Virus record (IMG/VR): IMGVR_UViG_3300005573_000098
Span: 1 to 62,247 of that record
Strand: one strand, 5' to 3'
DNA: 62,247 nucleotides
DNA from: a virus
Taxonomy: Duplodnaviria > Caudoviricetes
This document shows positions 27,135 to 39,070 of the stretch, one piece after another. Each line of letters begins with the position of its first letter. The first letter of the stretch is position 1. A model generated the notes under the pieces. It was not told the DNA's origin. It searched no databases and saw only the letters and a program-made list of their open reading frames with translations. The position numbers and the translations under genes were made by a program.

Positions 27135-27506
27135 ATGATTTCTGTGACAAGAAAATTTCATTTCTCTTACGCTCACAAACTTCCTAACTATCCTGGAAAC
27201 TGCTCGCGCCTTCATGGCCACAATGCAATCGTCGAAGTTACTTTTGAGCCAACAGGAGAAAATACGGGAATCCCAATGGTCATTGACTTTAGGGAAGTTA
27301 AGCAAATTGTCAGTCCGATTATAGAAGAGTTAGATCACAAATATCTTAATGACATTGTCTCATATCCATCAGCGGAAGCAATTGCAAAATATATTGCGGA
27401 TAAGATTATTGAAACATACCCATCGACGAATTCTGCTAAAGCAAAGCTCACAGCAGTAAAAGTTTTTGAAACTGAAAATTGCTGGGCCGAGTGGAAGGAG
27501 AAATAA
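27135..27506 (+). CDS. queD: 6-carboxy-5,6,7,8-tetrahydropterin synthase
   Basis: FSYAH, CSRLHGH, VIDF, LDHKYLN and VFET motifs. Confidence 0.93.
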   Translation: MISVTRKFHFSYAHKLPNYPGNCSRLHGHNAIVEVTFEPTGENTGIPMVIDFREVKQIVSPIIEELDHKYLNDIVSYPSAEAIAKYIADKIIETYPSTNSAKAKLTAVKVFETENCWAEWKEK

Positions 27507-27508
27507 AA

Positions 27509-28303
27509 ATGGAATGGGTGAAAGACAGCGGAGGCGAAGGAAAGAGTGTCTCAATCTATTCGATCGTAGAAAGCATATCAGGAGAGGTCTCTTTCGTTCC
27601 ACAAGGAACAAAAACACTCATCATTAGACTTGCAGGATGCAATTTGAGATGTTCTTATTGCGACACAAAAAAGGCATTGATAAAAGCGTCTGGAATGGAA
27701 GTTGAAACAAGCAAAGTAGCAAATAGGATAATTGATTATCTCCACGATAAGAGCATCTATCATGTGCTGATTACAGGCGGAGAACCGCTGATTCAGAGAT
27801 CGGCAGTCGATAAGATCTGTAAGTTGATTCTCAGGAAAAGCAAGGACAGGCTCATCACAATTGAAACGAACGGATCTCAACAACCTCTGCTATTGTCCGA
27901 AATTAGCAACAGGATATGCACAGTATTTGACTACAAACTTCCATCGTCTCTCCAAGAATGGAAAGGAGCAAATTTGCCATATATATTTTTCACACTTCCA
28001 AAGCATTCGTTTGTCAAATTTGTCTGCAAAGATGCTACGGACCTGGCCGTTGCCAAGGACGCGATGAAGAAGATAAGACTGAAAGAGGAGAAAAAAGCAA
28101 GGAAAAACAGAGTCAAGTTTGCTCTTTCTCCCGTATTTAAAGATGGAAGTCCAGATAGACTTTTTTTGAGAAGGTTGCTGGACGAGGTCTTGAAAATTCA
28201 AGATGGAGAAATGATCTTGAATTTACAAATACACAAATATATTTATGATCAATATAAAACCGAAGAAAGCGAATCCAGAAACCTCCTGAAGCGCTTTATC
28301 TAG
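27509..28303 (+). CDS. queE: 7-carboxy-7-deazaguanine synthase (radical SAM)
   Basis: SISGE, RLAGCNLRCSYCDT, ITGGEP, IETNG and LQIHK motifs. Confidence 0.93.
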   Translation: MEWVKDSGGEGKSVSIYSIVESISGEVSFVPQGTKTLIIRLAGCNLRCSYCDTKKALIKASGMEVETSKVANRIIDYLHDKSIYHVLITGGEPLIQRSAVDKICKLILRKSKDRLITIETNGSQQPLLLSEISNRICTVFDYKLPSSLQEWKGANLPYIFFTLPKHSFVKFVCKDATDLAVAKDAMKKIRLKEEKKARKNRVKFALSPVFKDGSPDRLFLRRLLDEVLKIQDGEMILNLQIHKYIYDQYKTEESESRNLLKRFI

Positions 28304-28500: not shown

Positions 28501-30468
28501 ATGAAAGCAATGAAAGCATTGAAGATTGCGAATTCGCTCGGGGCTGCCATTGACAAGGGCTTTCTCCTGATCAATGCCATCGATCAGGAGAAAGCCCTTT
28601 TTCTTTCCCGTTGGTTTCATTTTGCCCAGCGGGAAAGAGATATTGATGAGACCTTGGCAGAGATCCGAGAAGGGTCTCTGCCGCCGAGGACGATCATTTT
28701 CGCCTCGGCAGAAATTATCGACGCGGAGGATGACAGAGACCGGCATTTTATAGGCATCACCGATGCCTGCCTAGAGAAGATCTGGGACATTGTCCCAGAT
28801 CTTGATGACAGGGAAGAGATCGAGGAAATTAGCTCCTCGATCTATCTCGAGATCGACACCAACGAAGGGCCGGCGTGGAAATGGGTTGGATCCACATTTC
28901 GCTGTGGGTCCAATTATTCCTTCGTGACGAGCATCGACGTCGAAACGCTCGAAAAAGATGTCTTCGAGCGTCTGTTTTGGTTGCTCGAAAATGAAGGATT
29001 CCTCCGGCCCATCAGCGACGGGAATCCGGAGGAGCTCCTTCGGGCCGTGAGCCCGTGGATTGTGGAGCACGCTCAGCTCACCGAACGATCGTCCATCATA
29101 ATCAACACGATCGTCCGGCCTGCTCCGCTCACCCTTATCACAGCTTCAAGATTTTTGCCTCGCGGGCAACGCGAGATCATCCTGTCTAGTGATTTCCTTC
29201 CAATACTGCGATGGGATGAGTGGTCAGTCGACTTCGACGAAATGATCGAGTCGGTCCCAATCGCGACCGTTTGGGCCGAGCGCCCAGATGGGTCCAGAAA
29301 GTGGATTTGCTCTGTTGCGACCGACTCACAGGTAGTCACTATGCCATACCTTATAGGCGACGTGGAACACGTTGCTTACTGGATGACCAAGCTTTTTTGT
29401 AAGTTGGAAGAGCTTGGCGTTCTGGCCCCTCTTTCCGAGTGGTCCGGAAAAATCTGCAAGCCGGCCATCGAGGTCTCCCTCGGCGGAGACCCTGAATTTG
29501 AGCTCCTCAAAGATGGCCGGCTCATCGAGGCAAGAGAGACGGAGTACTCGTCTCTCGGAGAGGCGATAGGGCGAGATGGAGCGGGTTATCAGATCGAGCT
29601 CCGTCCTGAGCCGAGCACCAACCCACAGGAGCTCGTCCGCAACATCCGAAGCTTGTTGCGGGAGCTGTATAGCAATGGATATGACGTCTCCGCGACCGGA
29701 GACATCCATCCGCTCGGAGGTCATATCCACTTTGGCCTGTCAATCCGGCCAGAGGATGTCGAGGTCTATGTTGAGGCTCTCGACGATTTCATCGGGCGCC
29801 CAACCCAGATTCTCTCCGGAAAGGCTCGGCAGAACTCCGAATACGGGCGGCTCGGAGATTATCGGCTCCAGCCGCATGGATTTGAGTATCGGACCGTCCC
29901 CACGGCAGTTTGGAGCCATCCTCGGATGGCTCAGATCACGTTGACGATGGCCAAGGCTCTTGTCCAGAGTCTGGCCAATGGAAAGGTCCTCGAGTACAAC
30001 GAGGAGCCGACGGTCGAGGATTATGTTCGATTGACAGGCGTCGGCGAAAAAGATGTCCGATTTTTCTTGGGGTTTTGTAAAAAAACCCTTCACAGAAAAT
30101 TCACTGTCGCCGCCGCGTGGAAGCTCGACATCGATGAATCGCCTGCCACGGCAGTTAAGTTGGCGGCGGGATCCGTCTTTGAGCCGTGGGCAATGGATGA
30201 GGTCCGGACTGTCTTCCAAGACGTCCGGCTTATGTCGAGGATCTTGCTTTTTGGTCTTTCCGAGCAGCGTGGAAATGTTTTCAATTTCCCTTGCTCGCTG
30301 GGGAAGACAATAAAGTTCTGCGGTGAGTGGAACCCATACACATCGTATGGGTTTTCCTGGGAAAGTAGGAGAGATCGGGGCCTGTTCAGGAAAGCGCTTG
30401 AGGATTTGAAGGCCCATCTCCTTAAAACGAAAGTGGCGATCAGCATCAAAAGAAGAAAGGAGAGCTAA
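28501..30468 (+). CDS. COOH-NH2 ligase-type (phiEco32-like) amidoligase with unknown N-terminal half
   Basis: LGGDPEFEL, IGRDG, ELRPEP, GGHIHFG, YG..GDYR and GFEYRT motifs. Confidence 0.8.
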   Translation: MKAMKALKIANSLGAAIDKGFLLINAIDQEKALFLSRWFHFAQRERDIDETLAEIREGSLPPRTIIFASAEIIDAEDDRDRHFIGITDACLEKIWDIVPDLDDREEIEEISSSIYLEIDTNEGPAWKWVGSTFRCGSNYSFVTSIDVETLEKDVFERLFWLLENEGFLRPISDGNPEELLRAVSPWIVEHAQLTERSSIIINTIVRPAPLTLITASRFLPRGQREIILSSDFLPILRWDEWSVDFDEMIESVPIATVWAERPDGSRKWICSVATDSQVVTMPYLIGDVEHVAYWMTKLFCKLEELGVLAPLSEWSGKICKPAIEVSLGGDPEFELLKDGRLIEARETEYSSLGEAIGRDGAGYQIELRPEPSTNPQELVRNIRSLLRELYSNGYDVSATGDIHPLGGHIHFGLSIRPEDVEVYVEALDDFIGRPTQILSGKARQNSEYGRLGDYRLQPHGFEYRTVPTAVWSHPRMAQITLTMAKALVQSLANGKVLEYNEEPTVEDYVRLTGVGEKDVRFFLGFCKKTLHRKFTVAAAWKLDIDESPATAVKLAAGSVFEPWAMDEVRTVFQDVRLMSRILLFGLSEQRGNVFNFPCSLGKTIKFCGEWNPYTSYGFSWESRRDRGLFRKALEDLKAHLLKTKVAISIKRRKES

Positions 30469-31277: not shown

Positions 31278-31898
31278 ATGTGTATCATTGGCGTTCTCTA
31301 CAACAGAAGGCCATCCACGGAAGAATTAAACAACTGTATCTTCGAGAACTCGCACGGAGCGGGACTGGCATGGATTGAGAAAAATCATGTTAGATGGACG
31401 AAAGGATTAAAAACCATAAATGAGGTTCAAAAAGCCCTTTCACAGATCCCACTTCCCGCCATCTTTCACGCAAGAACGGCTTCCGCAGGAAGTGTTCTTC
31501 CTGAACTTTGCCATCCTTTTCCGCTCGAACCTGACATTCCACTTGCAACATCTGGAAAAACGAGCAAGGGAGTGTTGTTTCACAACGGGCATTGGAGCGG
31601 CTGGGAGATTGCCTGCAACCTTCTTGCTGAGACTAATGGGTGGCCTTTGCTTAAGGGACCGGCGAGCGATACCAGATACATTGCTTGGTTAGTTGTCAAC
31701 GCGAAGAATGCAAGCATTTTGAAAAAGCTAGAAGCAAAAATTGTGATCCTAAGTCCGAAAGGACCAGTCATCTTCGGAGATGGCTGGATTAAAGATCGAG
31801 GGGTCCTTTGGTCAAATTATGGATACAAGGGAGGTGCATATCAATGGGCAAAAGAGAGATGGAACCTGTTATCAGGTGGAAAAGGATTTTGGAAGTAA
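31278..31898 (+). CDS. Class II (Ntn) glutamine amidotransferase
   Basis: N-terminal MC nucleophile, HGAG, HARTAS, CHPF, FHNG and SDT motifs. Confidence 0.88.
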   Translation: MCIIGVLYNRRPSTEELNNCIFENSHGAGLAWIEKNHVRWTKGLKTINEVQKALSQIPLPAIFHARTASAGSVLPELCHPFPLEPDIPLATSGKTSKGVLFHNGHWSGWEIACNLLAETNGWPLLKGPASDTRYIAWLVVNAKNASILKKLEAKIVILSPKGPVIFGDGWIKDRGVLWSNYGYKGGAYQWAKERWNLLSGGKGFWK

Positions 31899-32197
31899 CA
31901 AAGAAAATTTCCGGTCGAGATATAGCATTTTACTTAACTAGCAAACATACAGGATACCGTGGAGCATTGATTCATGATGACGAGGGAAAGACCATTATTT
32001 ATATGGACCTTTTAACAAATAAAAGCGAGGAAGATGTTATTGAGACGGTGTCGCACGAAGTAGCGCATTTATTGGTGAGAACGTCAGACCATTCTTTGGA
32101 GTGGTCTGAAAAGATGAAGGAAGTAAGAAAACAATTTATGGAAGAAATGCAACAGGGACAGGGAAGAAAAAACAAGGAAGAGGAGGGACTGCAATGA
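31889..32197 (+). CDS. Small SprT-like zinc metallopeptidase domain protein
   Basis: TVSHEVAHL...DHSLEW (HExxH plus a third His). The start codon is uncertain. Confidence 0.6.
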   Translation: MEVTKKISGRDIAFYLTSKHTGYRGALIHDDEGKTIIYMDLLTNKSEEDVIETVSHEVAHLLVRTSDHSLEWSEKMKEVRKQFMEEMQQGQGRKNKEEEGLQ

Positions 32198-33168
32198 GAA
32201 ATGAAAGCGAAGAAATCGAGTTCGATGATGGATCCAAAATCTCGGCAGAAAAAGGGAAAGTTTTTTGTGTCATGTGTCCGAAATGCGGAGCAAAAATTGA
32301 GACAGATGCAACAGCCGTATCGTTAAATTATGGCATTGCCCTGAAAAGGGCCGTGAAACTTACTGATGACGGCTTTAAAGCCTTATTGCTAAGAAAGGGA
32401 TGTGTGTTCTGCAAATCCGACAAAGCAAGAAGAAAGGAGGAAAGCGAAATGGCAAGAAGAGAAAAGAAGTCCAAAGTCGAAGAAGAGAAAGTCAAAGCCG
32501 AAATCCAGGACGAAGAAACCGAAATCCAGGACGAGGACGAAGAAACCGAAATCCAGGACGAGGACGAAGAAATCGAAATCGAGGACGAGGAAGACGAGGA
32601 AGACGAGGAAGATGAAGAAGAGGAAGACGAGGAAGACGAGGAAGACGAGGAAGATGAAGAAGAGGAAGACGAAGACGAGGAAGACGAGGAAGACGAGGAA
32701 GATGAAGAAGAGGAAGACGAAGACGAGGAAGACGAGGAAGATGAAGAAGAGGAAGACGAAGACGAGGAAGATGAAGACGAGGAAGATGAAGAAGAGGAAG
32801 ACGAAGACGAGGAAGATGAAGAAGACAATAAGAAGGGAAAGCGCAAAGGAAGGAAAAAAGTAATGACAAGAACAGCAAAGACCACCAAGGAGAAAGCAGA
32901 AAAACAGAGAAAGATTTCCGACAAACAAAAGAAGACTGAAGCTAAAGCAAAGGAGGGCAAGCCTGGAGTCGTTAAAACAATCTTCGAGTCGCTTAAGCAA
33001 AGAGCATTGGCCAAAAACGAGATCTTGGAAATCCTGGTTAAGAAATTTCCGAGCAGAGACCCATCGAAAATGAAAAACACGATTAGCACTCAGCTAGCTA
33101 ACGCAAAAAGGAACGGAATACTCTACAAGAGGAGCGACGGTAAATTTTGTTTGACGCAGAAAAAATAG
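32194..33168 (+). CDS. Hyper-acidic tract protein: Zn ribbon, poly-D/E, basic linker and winged-helix-like C-terminus
   Basis: CPKC...CVFC, 82 consecutive D/E codons, [10 protein letters not shown] and [16 protein letters not shown]...; internal AAAGGAGG-ATG at 32449. Confidence 0.75.
32497..32826 (+). repeat. GAR/GAY low-complexity tandem repeat encoding the acidic tract
   Basis: Recurring gaggaagac and gaggaagatgaagaa units, preceded by three copies of ccgaaatccaggacga. Confidence 0.9.
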
Positions 33169-33252: not shown

Positions 33253-34320
33253 ATGATTTATGTATACGAAGCCTTTAGCCCAGAATCGATCTGCTACGTA
33301 ACAAAGCATGGAGCGGTAATAGCAGACGATTACTCACGTGCAAAGTTTTCTTTTCCCAGTCATGTCAAAGGAATGGAAAAGATCGAGGGCGGGATTTCGT
33401 TCAAGATGATAAAATACGTTCTATCAGTTGAAAACGACGAGCTTCAATCCGAAATTTCAGAGAACGCGCTCCATATATTTTCTCAAAATAAAGACAAGCA
33501 CGCATCTTTTGCTTATATTGAAAATGTTCCAAAACATATATCGAAATATGCAAAGAGCCTTTCAAAGTCAAAACTTACCTGGATCAAGGAAGAGGCTGCA
33601 AAGGATCTTGTCGAAGGATTGACCACCTGCGTAGATTCAGCGTCGGAAAGTCTTTACTATCCATCTTTAGCTTACCTAGCAATAAGAGGACGTAAGATTT
33701 ATGGCTCTGACGGAAAACAATTGTCAATATATACCCTGGACGAAGAATTTCAATGCGACAAAAAAGAGGTTTTGCTTCATTCCTTCGCAACAAAAAAACT
33801 GCAGCACCTGAAAAAAGAAGGAATAGCAGGATACGCCGTAAGCGGCAGCGAAGTCCACTTTCTTTCAAATGACGGAGTCATTATGAGCTTGAGAATGGGA
33901 GAAGCAGAGTATCCTGACATAGAAACTCTTTTAAAGCTCAACGAAAAAGGAAATGAAGTTACCATCCAATTTAGCCAAGGCTTCATGCTCACCCTAGAGC
34001 GATTGATGGTAGTTTCGCCCGAAGCTATCTGCGTTGAAATCGTGAAAAGAAAGGAAAAAGGAAAACAAGTGGAAATGACAATGCTAGCGACCAACAAGCT
34101 CAACGAAAGAGTAATGGAAAAGTTAGTAGTGCAAGGTATGGCAAAGGATAACTTTGATCTCAGGATCATCAAGTTTAAAGTTTCAGCGGACATACTTTAT
34201 AAGCTGCTGAAGAATGCTAATTCGTTCACTATTGAAATTGGATCGAATTTGCTGAAGCTGAGTGGCAAAAAGGGCGATGATAAAGTAGAGCATTACATTG
34301 CTAAAGAGGAGGCAGAGTGA
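33253..34320 (+). CDS. dnaN: DNA polymerase III beta-subunit-like sliding clamp
   Basis: 355 aa; YPSLAYLAI...YGSDGKQL resembles the ATDG.RL motif, and EYPDIETL is present. A clamp loader gene is nearby. Confidence 0.6.
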   Translation: MIYVYEAFSPESICYVTKHGAVIADDYSRAKFSFPSHVKGMEKIEGGISFKMIKYVLSVENDELQSEISENALHIFSQNKDKHASFAYIENVPKHISKYAKSLSKSKLTWIKEEAAKDLVEGLTTCVDSASESLYYPSLAYLAIRGRKIYGSDGKQLSIYTLDEEFQCDKKEVLLHSFATKKLQHLKKEGIAGYAVSGSEVHFLSNDGVIMSLRMGEAEYPDIETLLKLNEKGNEVTIQFSQGFMLTLERLMVVSPEAICVEIVKRKEKGKQVEMTMLATNKLNERVMEKLVVQGMAKDNFDLRIIKFKVSADILYKLLKNANSFTIEIGSNLLKLSGKKGDDKVEHYIAKEEAE

Positions 34321-35280
34321 ATGAGAAAACAGTATACAGCGGAAGAGTTCATCAAGGATGCTAAAAAACTTGGAGACATTATAGCAGATTTTCTTTCAGC
34401 GGACAAAACCGCATATGAAGGCATCTATGGAGTGCCTAGAGGGGGCTGTTGCCTCGCAACTTATTTGTCCCAAAAACTGAAGATTCCTCTTGTAAGTGAC
34501 ATAAAAAACAGAAATGACATATTGGTGGTCGATGACATCATCGATAGTGGAAAAACGAGGAAGCGATTTGAAGGAAAAGATTTCGCAGTGATACATTGCA
34601 AAGCTGATCCAAACAGGCTTAACAGCATTCGAGGAAGGACATATTTTGTTCACAAAATAGACTCAAGCGTTTGGGTTGATTACTTTTGGGAACAAGGAAC
34701 CATATCAACAGCAGAAGAAATAATTACAAGGCAGATTGAGCTTATCGGAGATAATCCGAATCGAAAAGGGCTAATTGACACGCCAAGAAGAGTTGCCAAG
34801 GCATGGAAGGAAATGTTTAGTGGATATTCAATAAATCCTTCAACTTTATTCACAAGTTTTGACGCTGAAAGATATGATCAAATTGTGGTAGTTAAAGACA
34901 TCGATTTCTTTTCAACTTGTGAGCATCATCTTCTTCCGTTTTTGGGAAGAGCTCATGTTGCTTATATTCCTAACAAACAAATAATAGGAGCTTCGAAAAT
35001 TCCGAGGCTTGTTGAAGCATTTTCTAGAAGATTGCAAATACAAGAAAGACTTGGAGATCAGATAGTTGAAAGTTTAATGCGTAACCTAAAACCAAAAGGG
35101 GCTGCTTGCATTCTTGAAGCTCATCATCTTTGTATGATGCTGAGAGGCATCAAGAAGAAGCCTGTCATGATAACGTCAAGCATGAAAGGCATTTTTTTGG
35201 AAAACAGCGATAAAGGGAGAGCCGCAAGACAAGAGCTAATGGCAATTATTTCAGCTAAGAGTATCAAACAATACAGCTAA
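34321..35280 (+). CDS. folE: Type I phosphoribosyltransferase fused to GTP cyclohydrolase I
   Basis: N-terminal YGVPRGG and LVVDDIIDSGKT (PRPP-binding loop); C-terminal DTPRRVA, CEHHLLPF, LQIQERL and HLCMMLRG. Confidence 0.92.
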   Translation: MRKQYTAEEFIKDAKKLGDIIADFLSADKTAYEGIYGVPRGGCCLATYLSQKLKIPLVSDIKNRNDILVVDDIIDSGKTRKRFEGKDFAVIHCKADPNRLNSIRGRTYFVHKIDSSVWVDYFWEQGTISTAEEIITRQIELIGDNPNRKGLIDTPRRVAKAWKEMFSGYSINPSTLFTSFDAERYDQIVVVKDIDFFSTCEHHLLPFLGRAHVAYIPNKQIIGASKIPRLVEAFSRRLQIQERLGDQIVESLMRNLKPKGAACILEAHHLCMMLRGIKKKPVMITSSMKGIFLENSDKGRAARQELMAIISAKSIKQYS

Positions 35281-35291
35281 GGCGAATAACA

Positions 35292-36371
35292 ATGAAAATC
35301 TATTTGACCATTGACTTTGAAATGTCAAGATTAGAAGCCTATATACGCTTCCTGAATTTCAAATTTCCAACAGAGTTGAGCAATTTTCTTTTCTTCAGTG
35401 CAAACGACGAAATTGTGACAAGAAAACTGAAAATGCTAAGTGAGGTTTCCGACTCAATTCTTTACGACTCTGGAGCGTTCACGCTTCACCTACGAGCGAT
35501 GAAGCAAAAAGCTAAAGGCACTTTTAATCAAGCGGAACATGAAAGGACTTTAGAACGCCACTTTCAAAATTATTTGCAAATGCTTCATAAGCACTCAAAA
35601 AAGTTTGAGCTATATGCAAATTTCGATGTAATTGAAGATCCAGAAAGGTCTGCACAATATCAATCTAGAATGGAGAAGCAAGGGCTAAGACCAATGCCAG
35701 TATATCACAGAGGAACGGATCTAAGATACCTTAAATACTACTTAGAAAATTATGAGTATGTTGGTATCGGAGGATTTGCTTATCACTCTAGTGTGTCTTG
35801 GAAAGTGAAGCAGGAAATGCTGAAAGACTTATGGAGATTTATTTACAATGTTAACCCAAACGCAAAAATTCATGGATTCGGCCTGGGACGAGCTAGGTAT
35901 TTCGCTTTTCCATGGTGCAGCATCGATACGAGCAGGCCTTTTAGGCAGGCTGTGTGGACAAAATTGCTGTTAATCAGCTACATTCCAGAGGAGATAAAGT
36001 TTAGTGGAGCAAGAGAAATAAAGAGACAATGCAGCGTGCATATTGCAGATCTTATTGATTATAGCATTTCAAAGTTTGAACTTATGCAGCCAGGAAGTGA
36101 AAAAAGAAAATTTATGGATGCGATTTTAGACTACCTCTACGAGAAAAAAATGCTAAAGGAAAAAGTTAAAACTAAGGATCTGATCTTCAGCGCGAAAACG
36201 ACGAAGGGCAAGCACAAGGTGGACACGCCTTTGTGGATGTGCATTCAATTTGCAATTTCAAAACTATTGACAGACTATATCAACTCGAAGGAGTTTCAAT
36301 CTTTTGTCTCGGAAAGGCTCAAGAACGAGCTGAAAAGAAGAAAGTCCATATTTACAGGAGTAGCTAAGTGA
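35292..36371 (+). CDS. dpdA: DpdA/TGT-like guanine transglycosylase
   Basis: YDSGAFT, NFDVI, PMPVYH, VGIGG, IHGFG and SIDTS TGT-fold motifs; lies between folE and polA. Confidence 0.72.
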   Translation: MKIYLTIDFEMSRLEAYIRFLNFKFPTELSNFLFFSANDEIVTRKLKMLSEVSDSILYDSGAFTLHLRAMKQKAKGTFNQAEHERTLERHFQNYLQMLHKHSKKFELYANFDVIEDPERSAQYQSRMEKQGLRPMPVYHRGTDLRYLKYYLENYEYVGIGGFAYHSSVSWKVKQEMLKDLWRFIYNVNPNAKIHGFGLGRARYFAFPWCSIDTSRPFRQAVWTKLLLISYIPEEIKFSGAREIKRQCSVHIADLIDYSISKFELMQPGSEKRKFMDAILDYLYEKKMLKEKVKTKDLIFSAKTTKGKHKVDTPLWMCIQFAISKLLTDYINSKEFQSFVSERLKNELKRRKSIFTGVAK

Positions 36372-39070
36372 AAAGAAAAAGCCCGTTCTTTCTATGGTAT
36401 CCAAAAAACTTGAATGCGGGCCCTTCTTCGATGGAGGAAATTTCCCGCGAAGCAAATTGCATGGAATGCAAGCTTTTTGCCCGATGCAAAAGCCCGAAGA
36501 TGAAAGCCAGTGGAGAAGGAAAAAGGAAGGTCTTAATCGTAGGAGAAGCTCCTGGAGAAACAGAAGACCTCCAAGGCATTCAATTTGTCGGAGAGGCCGG
36601 CAAGCTACTAAGGAGAACGTTGGCCGCATTAAAGTTTGATCTGGACAGAGATGCGAGGAAGATAAATGCAGTAAATTGCAGACCGCCAAACAACAGAACT
36701 CCAACAAAAAATGAGATCCAATGCTGCCGTCCGATGTTGGTTGCCGAAATCAAAGAAAGCCGTCCAAAAGTAATTGTGCCAATGGGCGAGACAGCCCTAA
36801 CTTCCGTGCTGTGGCAAAGGTGGAGACAGGCGTCCGGAGGAATTAGCAGATGGAACGGGTTTCAAATCCCAGATCAAGAGTATGGATGTTGGATAGTTCC
36901 GACTTTTCATCCTTCTTTTATTTTACGTATGCAAGGTAAAAACGGAACCGAAGCGATATGGATTCGAGATCTGAAAAGAGCAATTGCAAAGTCCGAAGAA
37001 CCAGATTTTCCAAGCTACAGCAAAAACAATCTTGAGAGCTCTTTGATAACGTTAAAAGATGAGACGAAGATAATAAAAGCTCTAAAGATGATATTGCACA
37101 AGAAGCCTGCTCTTATTGCAATCGACTTCGAAACAACAGGACTCAAGCCAAGAAAAGACGGGCATAGAATTGTCGCTTGCTCCATTTGTTCCGCTGGAAT
37201 CGAAAACGAAGACGAAAAGGAGGTATCAATCTCGTTTTTGCTGAACATGAGAAAAGACAGTGGCAATGAAAAGATAAGACGTCTTCTATGCAAAATTTTT
37301 ACTGACCCACTAATCGGAAAGATTTCCCACAATTCCCAATTCGAATTGACCTGGGCCAAAGAAATACTGGGATGCTGGATTGCTCCGATAATCTGGGATT
37401 CAGAGATTGCAGCACATATAATCGACAATAGGCAAAAAACGTGCTCTTTGAAATTTCAAGCCTACGTCAACTTTGGAACTGTTTACGAAGACTTGGTTCC
37501 TCCAACATTAAGGGATTATTTGTTCAGCGGGGAGGATGGTACTTCATTTAACAGAATAAATGAGATTCCAACAGATGAATTGCTAAAGTACAACGCTCTC
37601 GACTCTCTATTTTGCTTCAAGCTGGCCAAGAAACAGATGGAAGAGCTAGGATTCCTTGCCCATAAAACAGAGGAAAGAATCGTACTCAAAAGATTTCCGA
37701 AAATCGATTCCGAAACGGAGCAGGTTGCGTCTGGTCTGCAAAAAGCAATGATGCTGTTCCTCGATGGATCTATATCCTTTGCGACCATGACAGCAGCGGG
37801 AATAAAAATCGATATAAACCAATGCAAAAGGGAATTGAGATCGACAGAGGAAAAAATTGAGAAGTGCGAAAGCAACTTGAGAAATTCCGTACTAGGGATG
37901 GAGTGGAAAAGAAAATATGGGCAAAAAATGAACTTTGAATCTCCTATCCAGTTATCAAGGCTTTTGTCTGCCAATGTGAGCTCAATGAACGGCGAAAAAA
38001 TATCAACAAGGCATGAAGATCTTGAAGAGCTCGTGGGAAAAATAGACGGAATAGCAAATCTCTTGGAATACAGGAGACTGCGAAAGCAGCAGAATTATCT
38101 ACTAGGGCTGGAAAAGGAAATTGAAAACGGAAAGCTTCATCCTTTCTTTTCCTTGTCTGGAGTTTCTACGTATCGCAGTTCCAGCCACAACATCAATTTC
38201 CAAAACATACCCATTCGTCATGGACAAATGAGCGAAGCAATAAGGAAATGCTTTGTTCCGAGAAATGGAAGAAAACTAATTGAAGTCGATTATAAGGGAA
38301 TCGAAGTTTCAGTCGCTGCTTGCTACCACAAAGACCCCAATATGATTTCTTATTTGTCATCTATGTCAAAAGATTTGCACAAAGATATGGCCTCGATGAT
38401 TTACTTGCTCAAGAGGAGCCAAGTCTCGAAGCAAGCAAGATACTCAGCAAAGAACGCTTTTGTCTTTCCGCAATTCTACGGAGATTATTACGTCAATTGC
38501 GCAAAAGCGTTGTGGAAAAATGTTCAAGCATTGGACCTGAAAATTGAAGGAGCGGGCATTAGCATTGCCGAACATCTAAGAAATTCAGGACTTGGAACGT
38601 ATGAAAAGTTCGAAGAGCACCTAATGAAAGTCGAAAACAAATTTTGGAATGTAATGTTTCCCAAGTATAGAGAGTGGAAAGAAGAATGGGTCAACATGTT
38701 CGAGAAAAAAGGATACGTCGAAATGCTTACCGGATTTCGATGTTGGGGCCCGATGACAAGAAACCAGGCAATCAACTATCCCATACAAGGAACGGCATTT
38801 CACATCCTGCTATGGTCGTTGATCAGAATTACCGACAAGCTCAAAGAGAAGAGAATGAGGGCAAAGCTGATTGGGCAAATCCATGATTGCATGTTATTTG
38901 ATGTGCCAGAGGATGAGGTCGAGGAGTTGATAAAACTTCTAAACGAAGTCATGACAGTTGAAGTAAGAGATGAATGGAAATGGATTATCGTGCCACTATC
39001 GATCGAAGTGGAAGCAACGCCCATTAACCAGTCATGGGCCGCAAAAAGGCCAATAGAGGAGAATCACTAA
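36368..39070 (+). CDS. polA: Family A DNA polymerase with N-terminal family-4 uracil-DNA glycosylase domain and 3'-5' exonuclease
   Basis: UDG motifs CMECKL, VGEAPG, NCRPPNNR and FHPSFILR; exonuclease IDFETTGL; polymerase DYKGIE, RYSAKN...YG and QIHD. Confidence 0.93.
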   Translation: MKRKSPFFLWYPKNLNAGPSSMEEISREANCMECKLFARCKSPKMKASGEGKRKVLIVGEAPGETEDLQGIQFVGEAGKLLRRTLAALKFDLDRDARKINAVNCRPPNNRTPTKNEIQCCRPMLVAEIKESRPKVIVPMGETALTSVLWQRWRQASGGISRWNGFQIPDQEYGCWIVPTFHPSFILRMQGKNGTEAIWIRDLKRAIAKSEEPDFPSYSKNNLESSLITLKDETKIIKALKMILHKKPALIAIDFETTGLKPRKDGHRIVACSICSAGIENEDEKEVSISFLLNMRKDSGNEKIRRLLCKIFTDPLIGKISHNSQFELTWAKEILGCWIAPIIWDSEIAAHIIDNRQKTCSLKFQAYVNFGTVYEDLVPPTLRDYLFSGEDGTSFNRINEIPTDELLKYNALDSLFCFKLAKKQMEELGFLAHKTEERIVLKRFPKIDSETEQVASGLQKAMMLFLDGSISFATMTAAGIKIDINQCKRELRSTEEKIEKCESNLRNSVLGMEWKRKYGQKMNFESPIQLSRLLSANVSSMNGEKISTRHEDLEELVGKIDGIANLLEYRRLRKQQNYLLGLEKEIENGKLHPFFSLSGVSTYRSSSHNINFQNIPIRHGQMSEAIRKCFVPRNGRKLIEVDYKGIEVSVAACYHKDPNMISYLSSMSKDLHKDMASMIYLLKRSQVSKQARYSAKNAFVFPQFYGDYYVNCAKALWKNVQALDLKIEGAGISIAEHLRNSGLGTYEKFEEHLMKVENKFWNVMFPKYREWKEEWVNMFEKKGYVEMLTGFRCWGPMTRNQAINYPIQGTAFHILLWSLIRITDKLKEKRMRAKLIGQIHDCMLFDVPEDEVEELIKLLNEVMTVEVRDEWKWIIVPLSIEVEATPINQSWAAKRPIEENH

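Follow-up and report, generated by a model that had tools for sequence, protein, structure and literature searches.

A short, loop-less phosphoribosyltransferase family coupled to FolE in phage 7-deazaguanine DNA-modification clusters

In the toyocamycin and tubercidin clusters of Streptomyces, a phosphoribosyltransferase (PRTase) of the PF00156 type, which we take to be ToyH and TubE, stands beside FolE, QueD and QueE, and the tubercidin cluster is without QueC; these clusters lack DpdA and make free nucleosides. The modification of phage DNA with 7-deazaguanines has so far been described with FolE, QueD, QueE and QueC together with their variants, with tailoring enzymes and with DpdA. The main text of PMC10516641 proposes that all phage 7-deazaguanine modifications are post-replicative, and reports that Campylobacter phage CP220, phage phiST of Cellulophaga and phage immuto_2-6A of Flavobacterium replace all guanine. 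Here we analysed the complete 62,247-bp phage genome with direct terminal repeats given by IMG/VR record IMGVR_UViG_3300005573_000098 (Duplodnaviria; Caudoviricetes), referred to below as the window, in which a single open reading frame (ORF) fuses a PRTase domain to FolE (GTP cyclohydrolase I). Like the tubercidin cluster, the window combines a PRTase with FolE, QueD and QueE, and no QueC was found in the whole 62-kb genome; unlike the Streptomyces clusters, by gene content, it has a DpdA gene next to the fusion and its product would go into DNA. The arrangement also resembles the Gat-QueC of phages, in which a core enzyme of the pathway likewise bears an accessory catalytic domain (main texts of PMC10516641 and PMC10484667), with the difference that Gat-QueC alters the end product (dG+), whereas PRTase-FolE sits at the entry step and its family spans several end products.

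A full-text literature search turned up no discussion of a PRTase in deazaguanine clusters of phages, and term searches of PMC10516641, PMC10484667 and PMC6884629 gave no occurrence of 'phosphoribosyl' in the main text; the supplements of these papers may list the gene. Two further candidates, PMC11097641 and PMC11309003, were rejected as they concern NAMPT only. The PRTase is an accessory of a known deazaguanine system and goes unmentioned in the literature searched. The parts of the fusion are the following:

34321-35280, + strand: PRTase-FolE fusion ORF, 319 residues (program-made ORF list and translation)
34321..34704, + strand: loop-less mini-PRTase domain resembling xanthine-guanine phosphoribosyltransferase (XGPRT), residues 1-128 (phrog_8995, AlphaFold2 (AF2), Foldseek, family profile)
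34432..34446, + strand: pyrophosphate (PPi)-loop motif VPRGG, residues 38-42 (translation; aligns with SRGG of XGPRT)
34447..34524, + strand: short spacer at the place of the flexible catalytic hairpin, 26 residues between RGG and DD
34525..34557, + strand: phosphoribosyl pyrophosphate (PRPP)-binding motif VVDDIIDSGKT, residues 69-79 (translation; aligns with IDDLVDTGGT of XGPRT)
34672..34692, + strand: WVDYFWE motif, residues 118-124 (aligns with W134...W139-D140 of XGPRT)
34705..35280, + strand: GTP cyclohydrolase I (FolE) domain, residues 129-319 (PF01227, TIGR00063, Foldseek)

The N-terminal domain is real and above chance, and the type I PRTases to which it belongs are XGPRT-like and form a family of their own. 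Residues 1-130 alone matched phrog_8995 ('phosphoribosyl transferase') at E 6.2e-9, and the models for described PRTases gave scores under their cut-offs (PF00156, 19.4 bits where the gathering score is 26.3; the XGPRT equivalog NF006613, 25.7 bits against 138). The AF2 model of the domain, built with 77 family sequences, reached a predicted local-distance difference test (pLDDT) value of 92.9 and a predicted template-modelling (TM) score of 0.86, and its top Foldseek match was E. coli XGPRT (E 5.5e-9, TM 0.75). The best folds in the Protein Data Bank (PDB) were XGPRT of E. coli and Y. pestis and XGHPRT of H. pylori (E 5.5e-9 to 1e-6, TM 0.67-0.75); there were 73 PDB matches at E <= 0.001, and among the matches listed all 23 are PRTases. 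The domain has the parallel-sheet core and the hood of type I PRTases. When the family profile was compared with PDB sequences, it matched the purine PRTase 1vdm of P. horikoshii (1.4e-25), HGXPRT of S. solfataricus (1.6e-18), XGPRT of Y. pestis and E. coli (about 1e-16) and 5vog, an XGPRT-like protein with bound ppGpp (E 3.7e-13). XGPRT/Gpt (1nul/1a95/4jls, 5xtk) and the archaeal enzymes (1vdm, S. solfataricus HGXPRT) therefore have the same fold as the N-terminal domain, at TM 0.67-0.75, and share its PPi loop, its PRPP motif and the Lys and Trp aligned to K115 and W134 (E 1e-15 to 1e-25). The phage domain differs from XGPRT in being about 20 residues shorter, without the loop-bearing beta-hairpin, in staying under the equivalog cut-off and in being encoded in phage deazaguanine clusters, here fused to FolE.

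Apart from the hairpin, the residues of XGPRT that contact PRPP, PPi and the base appear all to be kept in the family. Among 247 family domains, the PPi loop is preserved at R40 (221), G41 (241) and G42 (247), and the PRPP motif at D71 (245), D72 (222, with Glu in 22 more), D75 (236), G77 (247) and T79 (236). The WVDYFWE motif is likewise kept (W118 in 231, W123 in 212 and E124 in 237 of the 247), and K94 is Lys in 162 domains and Arg in 29. By profile alignment D75, K94 and W118 correspond to D92, K115 and W134 of XGPRT, which presumably contact N7, contact O6 and stack on the base, respectively.

In type I PRTases, the flexible catalytic loop, which shields the transition state, sits on a hairpin that lies after the PPi loop and before the PRPP motif. 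The alignments indicate that this hairpin, and the flexible loop with it, has been lost from the N-terminal domain and from its family: the spacer between RGG and DD is 26-34 residues in 201 of the 216 family domains measured, against 48 in XGPRT, and in every listed alignment the solved relative has about 20 further residues at this place. An earlier note on this DNA, made from the sequence, had spoken of an intact PRTase fused to FolE. The ORF, both motifs and FolE are indeed present, and only the word 'intact' went too far, the flexible loop being missing. The family provides a type I PRTase that occurs in nature with the flexible loop missing; this is of interest to enzymology both if it is active, for the way it then works, and if it has turned into a sensor. 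In Brevundimonas phage StAshley, the PRTase (L088, 5905-6378) matches the family profile in two pieces about 32 residues apart; it may keep a longer loop region and represent an intermediate form beside FolE.

The remainder of the ORF, residues ~129-319, is an intact, normal FolE, the enzyme that opens the deazaguanine pathway from GTP. It matched PF01227 over residues 132-300 (E 1.6e-64, score 217 against a cut-off of 27) and TIGR00063 with 199.7 bits, above the cut-off of 181.6. In the full-length AF2 model (pLDDT 88.7), Foldseek put FolE structures first, with FolE of M. tuberculosis as the best match (E 9.9e-23) and TM-scores of 0.82-0.89 for the FolE targets, which bears out the T-fold of this enzyme. 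C200, E201, H202 and H203 (CEHH, 200-203), H269 and C271 are invariant in 15 fused homologues, and we take the Cys and His residues among them to be zinc-binding.

The coupling of the PRTase to FolE and to the deazaguanine genes was surveyed in 80 IMG/VR viral loci that had been fetched by the PRTase motif alone and were scored, for genes within 10 kb, with purpose-built profiles. The PRTase is fused to FolE in 16 of these loci, always as the N-terminal part, and 50 others have a separate FolE gene no more than 10 kb away, in every case on the same strand; the remaining 14 showed no FolE. The distance between PRTase and FolE is at most 100 nucleotides (nt) in 32 of the 80 loci (FolE first in 22, PRTase first in 10), and the stop and start codons of the two genes overlap in many. 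The two genes thus form a mobile module, fused or adjacent. Over all 80 loci, QueE was found in 66, FolE in 66, QueD in 57, DpdA in 54, QueC in 52 and QueF in 8. At least one deazaguanine pathway gene occurs within 10 kb in 73 loci and none in 7, which bears out the tie to dpdA and que genes that the earlier note had supposed and rules out an independent distribution. The PRTase family recurs as an accessory in the clusters with which phages modify their DNA with 7-deazaguanines.

For the first 50 loci, library models were also run on the entire records, of which 5 are at least 90% complete. FolE was present in 43 of the 50 (and in 5/5 of those at least 90% complete), QueC in 37 (5/5) and phrog_887 in 14 (3/5); the base rate of FolE-like matches among isolated-phage records is 405 in 50,697. 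The same note had linked the fusion to the absence of queC, and this link did not hold: QueC is present in 13 of the 16 fused loci, as well as in the 37 whole records. The PRTases that stand alone beside FolE have a conserved C-terminal tail, DSxxIQDY, after WIVYPWE (D133 and Y134 at least 90% conserved in the alignment of L012-L083), and its carriers are mostly in clusters of the DpdA3 type. The fused form is without this tail because the first helix of FolE follows directly. The tail could be a docking element.

A HMMER search against 1.84 billion representatives, in which the family representatives were clustered at 50%, gave 1201 family matches at E <= 0.001. No match reached 1e-30, so the copy in the window is a divergent one. 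The family consists mostly of stand-alone proteins of 110-170 residues, as the lengths of the best 150 of the 1201 matches show:

fewer than 110 residues: 2
110-170 residues, stand-alone: 112
171-270 residues: 11
271-335 residues, PRTase-FolE fusions as judged by eye: 20
more than 335 residues: 5

Some unusual architectures were noted by eye among these proteins: P0109 (573 residues) is a PRTase-FolE fusion with a large intein-like insert just ahead of CEHH, P0038 and P0050 have a LAGLIDADG-like region ahead of the PRTase, and P0156 has a MazG-like N-terminus in the same place. Fifteen fused proteins, 287-320 residues long and 15/15 with PF01227, came from a word-based search. Among isolated phages, FolE-like matches occur in 405 of 50,697 records, and 34 of the 405 cover at least 80% of the fusion. 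The fused form is carried by Queuovirinae and their relatives among the phages of Vibrio, Pseudomonas, Stenotrophomonas, Xanthomonas, Sphingomonas and Variovorax; their fused proteins are annotated merely as 'GTP cyclohydrolase I', and the stand-alone members in phages are already labelled 'phosphoribosyl transferase' in GenBank. The number of phage records recovered by tblastn varied with the query: 5 with the N-terminal domain of the window, and 43 and 37 with more central queries, and CP220 needed the profile. The stand-alone members in isolated phages include:

Flavobacterium phage immuto_2-6A: stand-alone gp211, 62-70 nt upstream of FolE gp210
Cellulophaga phage phiST: stand-alone CGPG_00045, near ribonucleotide reductase
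Campylobacter phage CP220: stand-alone CPT_0182, profile E 2.5e-17
Brevundimonas phage StAshley: gene order ribonucleotide reductase (RNR), deoxynucleoside monophosphate (dNMP) kinase, FolE, PRTase
Synechococcus phage BUCT-ZZ01: gene order QueE, PRTase, x, QueD, FolE

All three phages with reported full replacement of guanine (CP220, phiST and immuto_2-6A) are thus carriers of the family, which occurs in phages reported to have dPreQ0-type bases, dDG, dADG and fdPreQ1. By profile, no family member was found in the deoxyinosine (dI)-containing Campylobacter phage NCTC12673 (Fletchervirus), in contrast to its relative CP220, which has dADG. A PRTase gene that is physically coupled to FolE and is found in every experimentally studied full-replacement phage checked bears on how a phage pays for, and disposes of, one guanine per exchanged base, and on whether the insertion of deazaguanine is purely post-replicative. 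When replacement is full, the released guanine would be of the same order as all the guanine in the progeny DNA.

The type of DpdA was determined for 57 DpdA matches, including those of L001, L004 and the window. In this seed comparison the DpdA of the window groups with the type of Vibrio phage 1.207.B (Queuovirinae), not with DpdA3. Fused PRTases pair with this window/Vibrio type in 12 of 13 cases, and stand-alone PRTases mostly with the DpdA3 type of immuto (33 of 44). Six of the 57 matches fit no seed, one of them (L014) having a weak match to the Pfam tRNA-guanine transglycosylase (TGT) model, and the family also co-occurs with TGT-like proteins of ~400 residues. In a converse sample of 80 loci, which are those nearest to a single DpdA3 protein, the PRTase was seen in 27 loci and FolE in 37; 22 loci had both, 15 had FolE and no PRTase, 5 had the PRTase and no FolE, and 38 had neither, a class that says little because many of these contigs are truncated. 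With the PRTase present in 22 of the 37 DpdA3 loci that show FolE, the gene is common there, yet these clusters can do without it or have it at another place. Where it is present, PRTase and FolE remain neighbours even if they lie 5-7 kb from QueE (L170, L171, L230). Some of the phrog_887 matches contained in-frame stops, namely those in G044 (L048; 5 TGA), G011 (L015; 3 TAG and 4 TAA), G021 (L025; 2 TGA) and G007 (L011; 1 TAA), which could reflect drift of the match frame, broken genes or reassignment of stop codons.

Cellular relatives were sampled at 80 loci from species-representative genomes, where the spacer was measured in 36, was unmeasurable in 40, and 4 regular-expression artefacts were dropped. 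A long spacer (43-53 residues) was found in 24 copies, from archaea, Actinomarina and others, and a short one in 12 copies, 4 of them with FolE and Que genes and 8 without a nearby pathway gene. The former 4 are probably phage DNA in metagenome-assembled genomes (MAGs). Those short-spacer loci without pathway genes that were inspected lie, 4/4 (L095, L108, L120, L137), among housekeeping genes in MAGs of the candidate phyla radiation (CPR), three of Saccharibacteria and one of Parcubacteria; the neighbours encode ClpB, ParB, HtrA, a P-type ATPase and a ZIP transporter. Saccharibacteria and Parcubacteria lineages depend on nucleotide salvage. The loop-less PRTases of the CPR are possibly the salvage PRTase of those reduced genomes, and in view of this context a PRTase without the loop may well be able to function on purines.

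From these sequence comparisons we tentatively propose that the PRTase domain is a guanine PRTase recycling the guanine released by DpdA to GMP, and then to GTP, for FolE, a reading that we regard as plausible rather than probable. DpdA would expel a guanine base from DNA at every exchange, the PRTase domain would join this guanine to PRPP to give GMP, and the host enzymes Gmk and Ndk would carry GMP back to GTP, the substrate of the fused FolE. Such recycling would refill the GTP pool drained by the deazaguanine pathway, and the removal of guanine would also clear a potential competitor of deazaguanine for re-insertion by DpdA. Of the two mechanisms offered by the earlier note, the comparative evidence leans to this one over a route at the nucleotide level. 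It is favoured because the gene travels with the GTP-consuming entry enzyme FolE and not with the last biosynthetic enzyme, because the family spans several DpdA types and several end products, because kinship with XGPRT is accompanied by conservation of the Asp aligned to D92 in 236 of the 247 domains, and because the loop-less CPR relatives sit among housekeeping genes. Guanine is the one substrate that all DpdA reactions would have in common, in line with this spread. Moreover, the accessory status of the gene (22 of 37 DpdA3 loci) fits a booster that duplicates the host Gpt/Hpt, and the contrast between CP220 with its family member and the dI phage NCTC12673 without one points the same way. 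Several points weigh on the other side. With the flexible hairpin absent, catalysis may be weak or different, and K94 is not universal (162 Lys and 29 Arg in 247). The relatives in CPR genomes may be uncharacterised in their turn, or may have been misbinned. A regulatory subunit would be just as compatible with the tight pairing with FolE, in which stop and start codons overlap in many loci. FolE requires the triphosphate GTP, and a direct channelling of GMP into the fused FolE was rejected, since GMP is two kinase steps away from that substrate. Homology, finally, cannot separate guanine from 7-carboxy-7-deazaguanine (CDG) or 7-cyano-7-deazaguanine (preQ0) because 7-deazaguanines share the 6-oxo and 2-amino groups.

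The domain might instead be a deazapurine nucleotide synthase that joins CDG, or elsewhere preQ0, 7-amido-7-deazaguanine (ADG) or 7-deazaguanine (DG), to PRPP. The resulting nucleotide would be taken by host or phage kinases and a reductase to deaza-dGTP, which a polymerase would incorporate beside or instead of the exchange by DpdA. We consider this assignment unlikely. Its precedent is the tailoring of preQ0 and CDG by PF00156 PRTases in the toyocamycin and tubercidin clusters (bioRxiv 10.64898/2026.04.15.718813), and the window resembles the tubercidin clusters in being without QueC. The family's presence in all three phages reported to replace guanine completely fits such a route and counts against guanine recycling, and so does the ADG nucleoside in CP220-infected cells, which the main text of PMC10516641 relays together with DpdA3 not having been shown active in E. 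coli. The phiST gene lies beside ribonucleotide reductase, and in StAshley RNR and dNMP kinase precede FolE and the PRTase. The gene nevertheless pairs with the first-step FolE and not with a maker of the final base, a single conserved pocket would have to take bases with very different 7-substituents, and D75, aligned to an Asp that presumably contacts N7, is kept in the 236 domains. DpdA is present in at least 54 of the 80 loci and adjoins the fusion here, and the PRTase is missing from 15 of the 37 DpdA3 loci that show FolE. The route is further disfavoured because the genes annotated in the replication module of the window (22-47 kb) include no nucleoside monophosphate (NMP) kinase, ribonucleotide reductase or dGTP-clearing dNTPase. 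That loop-less PRTases make deazaguanine nucleotides and so feed a pre-replicative deaza-dGTP route beside DpdA accordingly seems doubtful to us; if true, such a route would explain the complete replacement of guanine in CP220, phiST and immuto-type phages and would overturn the published proposal that all these modifications are post-replicative.

A non-catalytic role was weighed as well. GFRP acts as a regulator of animal GTP cyclohydrolase I, and PurR uses a PRTase fold to sense PRPP. By analogy, the loop-less fold could bind PRPP, a guanine nucleotide or (p)ppGpp and tune the activity or assembly of FolE. GFRP is, like the PRTase, a small partner dedicated to FolE, and its complexes (1is7, 6z80, 7alb) appear among the FolE fold matches; its fold is unrelated to the PRTase domain, for which regulation is put forward as a rival hypothesis only. 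A partner of this kind would agree with the family-wide loss of the catalytic hairpin, with the alternation of fused forms and adjacent ones, the latter often overlapping at the stop and start codons, a pattern typical of genes for subunits of a single complex, with the movement of the pair as a unit, with the conserved tail of stand-alone members in DpdA3 clusters, which has no known role in PRTases, and with the ppGpp-bound 5vog among the relatives. Against this stand the residues contacting PRPP, PPi and the base, conserved beyond the needs of a fold or a docking surface, and the predominance of stand-alone members, the copies of phiST and CP220 being far from FolE. The copies on CPR chromosomes have no FolE nearby, and the MazG-like fusion P0156 points to general nucleotide metabolism. 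We therefore regard a non-catalytic partner as improbable. That the domain is a decaying or neutral appendage, an inactive remnant carried with FolE, would accord with its scores under the Pfam and NCBIfam cut-offs and with the deleted loop. It is very unlikely because of the conservation of residues across the 247 domains, where the motif residues are near-invariant; the family's 1201 representatives, the independent maintenance of fused and stand-alone genes in unrelated phage lineages and the confident fold prediction speak against it as well.

The other features of the window that concern the pathway and the neighbourhood of the fusion are:

27135..27506, + strand: QueD (PTPS family; PF01242 E 6.7e-35)
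27479..28303, + strand: QueE-like radical SAM enzyme (PF04055 E 3.6e-14; also matches the survey QueE profile)
28501-30468: 655-residue ORF, its product having a COOH-NH2 ligase domain like that of phiEco32 (PF14395 E 1.1e-20; phrog_3815)
31278-31898: 206-residue ORF starting MCIIG, resembling the start of N-terminal-nucleophile amidotransferases (no Pfam or PHROG match)
32194-33168: 324-residue ORF, its middle third almost pure Glu/Asp repeat (DUF7560 sub-threshold, 18.1 bits against 27)
33253..34320, + strand: sliding-clamp-like protein, its gene ending where the fusion begins (phrog_947 'DNA polymerase processivity factor', E 1.7e-6)
35292..36371, + strand: DpdA-like DNA transglycosylase (phrog_887 'queuine tRNA-ribosyltransferase', E 3.3e-30)
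36368..39070, + strand: uracil-DNA glycosylase (UDG)-family domain, 3'-5' exonuclease and family A DNA polymerase (PF03167 E 1.8e-26, PF01612 E 1e-9, PF00476 E 6.9e-56)

The clamp, fusion, dpdA and polymerase genes form one densely packed operon on the + strand. The fusion had been described as lying immediately before dpdA, and the next ORF does start 11 nt after its stop codon; the identity of that neighbour is less firm, since it has the phrog_887 match and no match to the Pfam TGT model PF01702 even at E <= 1, and is thus DpdA-like by PHROG only. The start of the polymerase ORF overlaps the end of dpdA, its UDG-superfamily domain is N-terminal, and an AAA+ clamp-loader-like protein is encoded after it. 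A megablast comparison of the 30-42 kb region of the window with isolated phages gave no match.

The 655- and 206-residue ORFs both sit between QueE and the fusion, and their products might stand in for QueC by amidating CDG at its carboxyl group or by forming a conjugate there. A search for PF14395 in other fused records (L005, L007, L008, L010, L020) gave 0/5 and is uninformative, as the control genomes gave no match either. The acidic 324-residue ORF, for its part, could encode a DNA-mimic-like protein.

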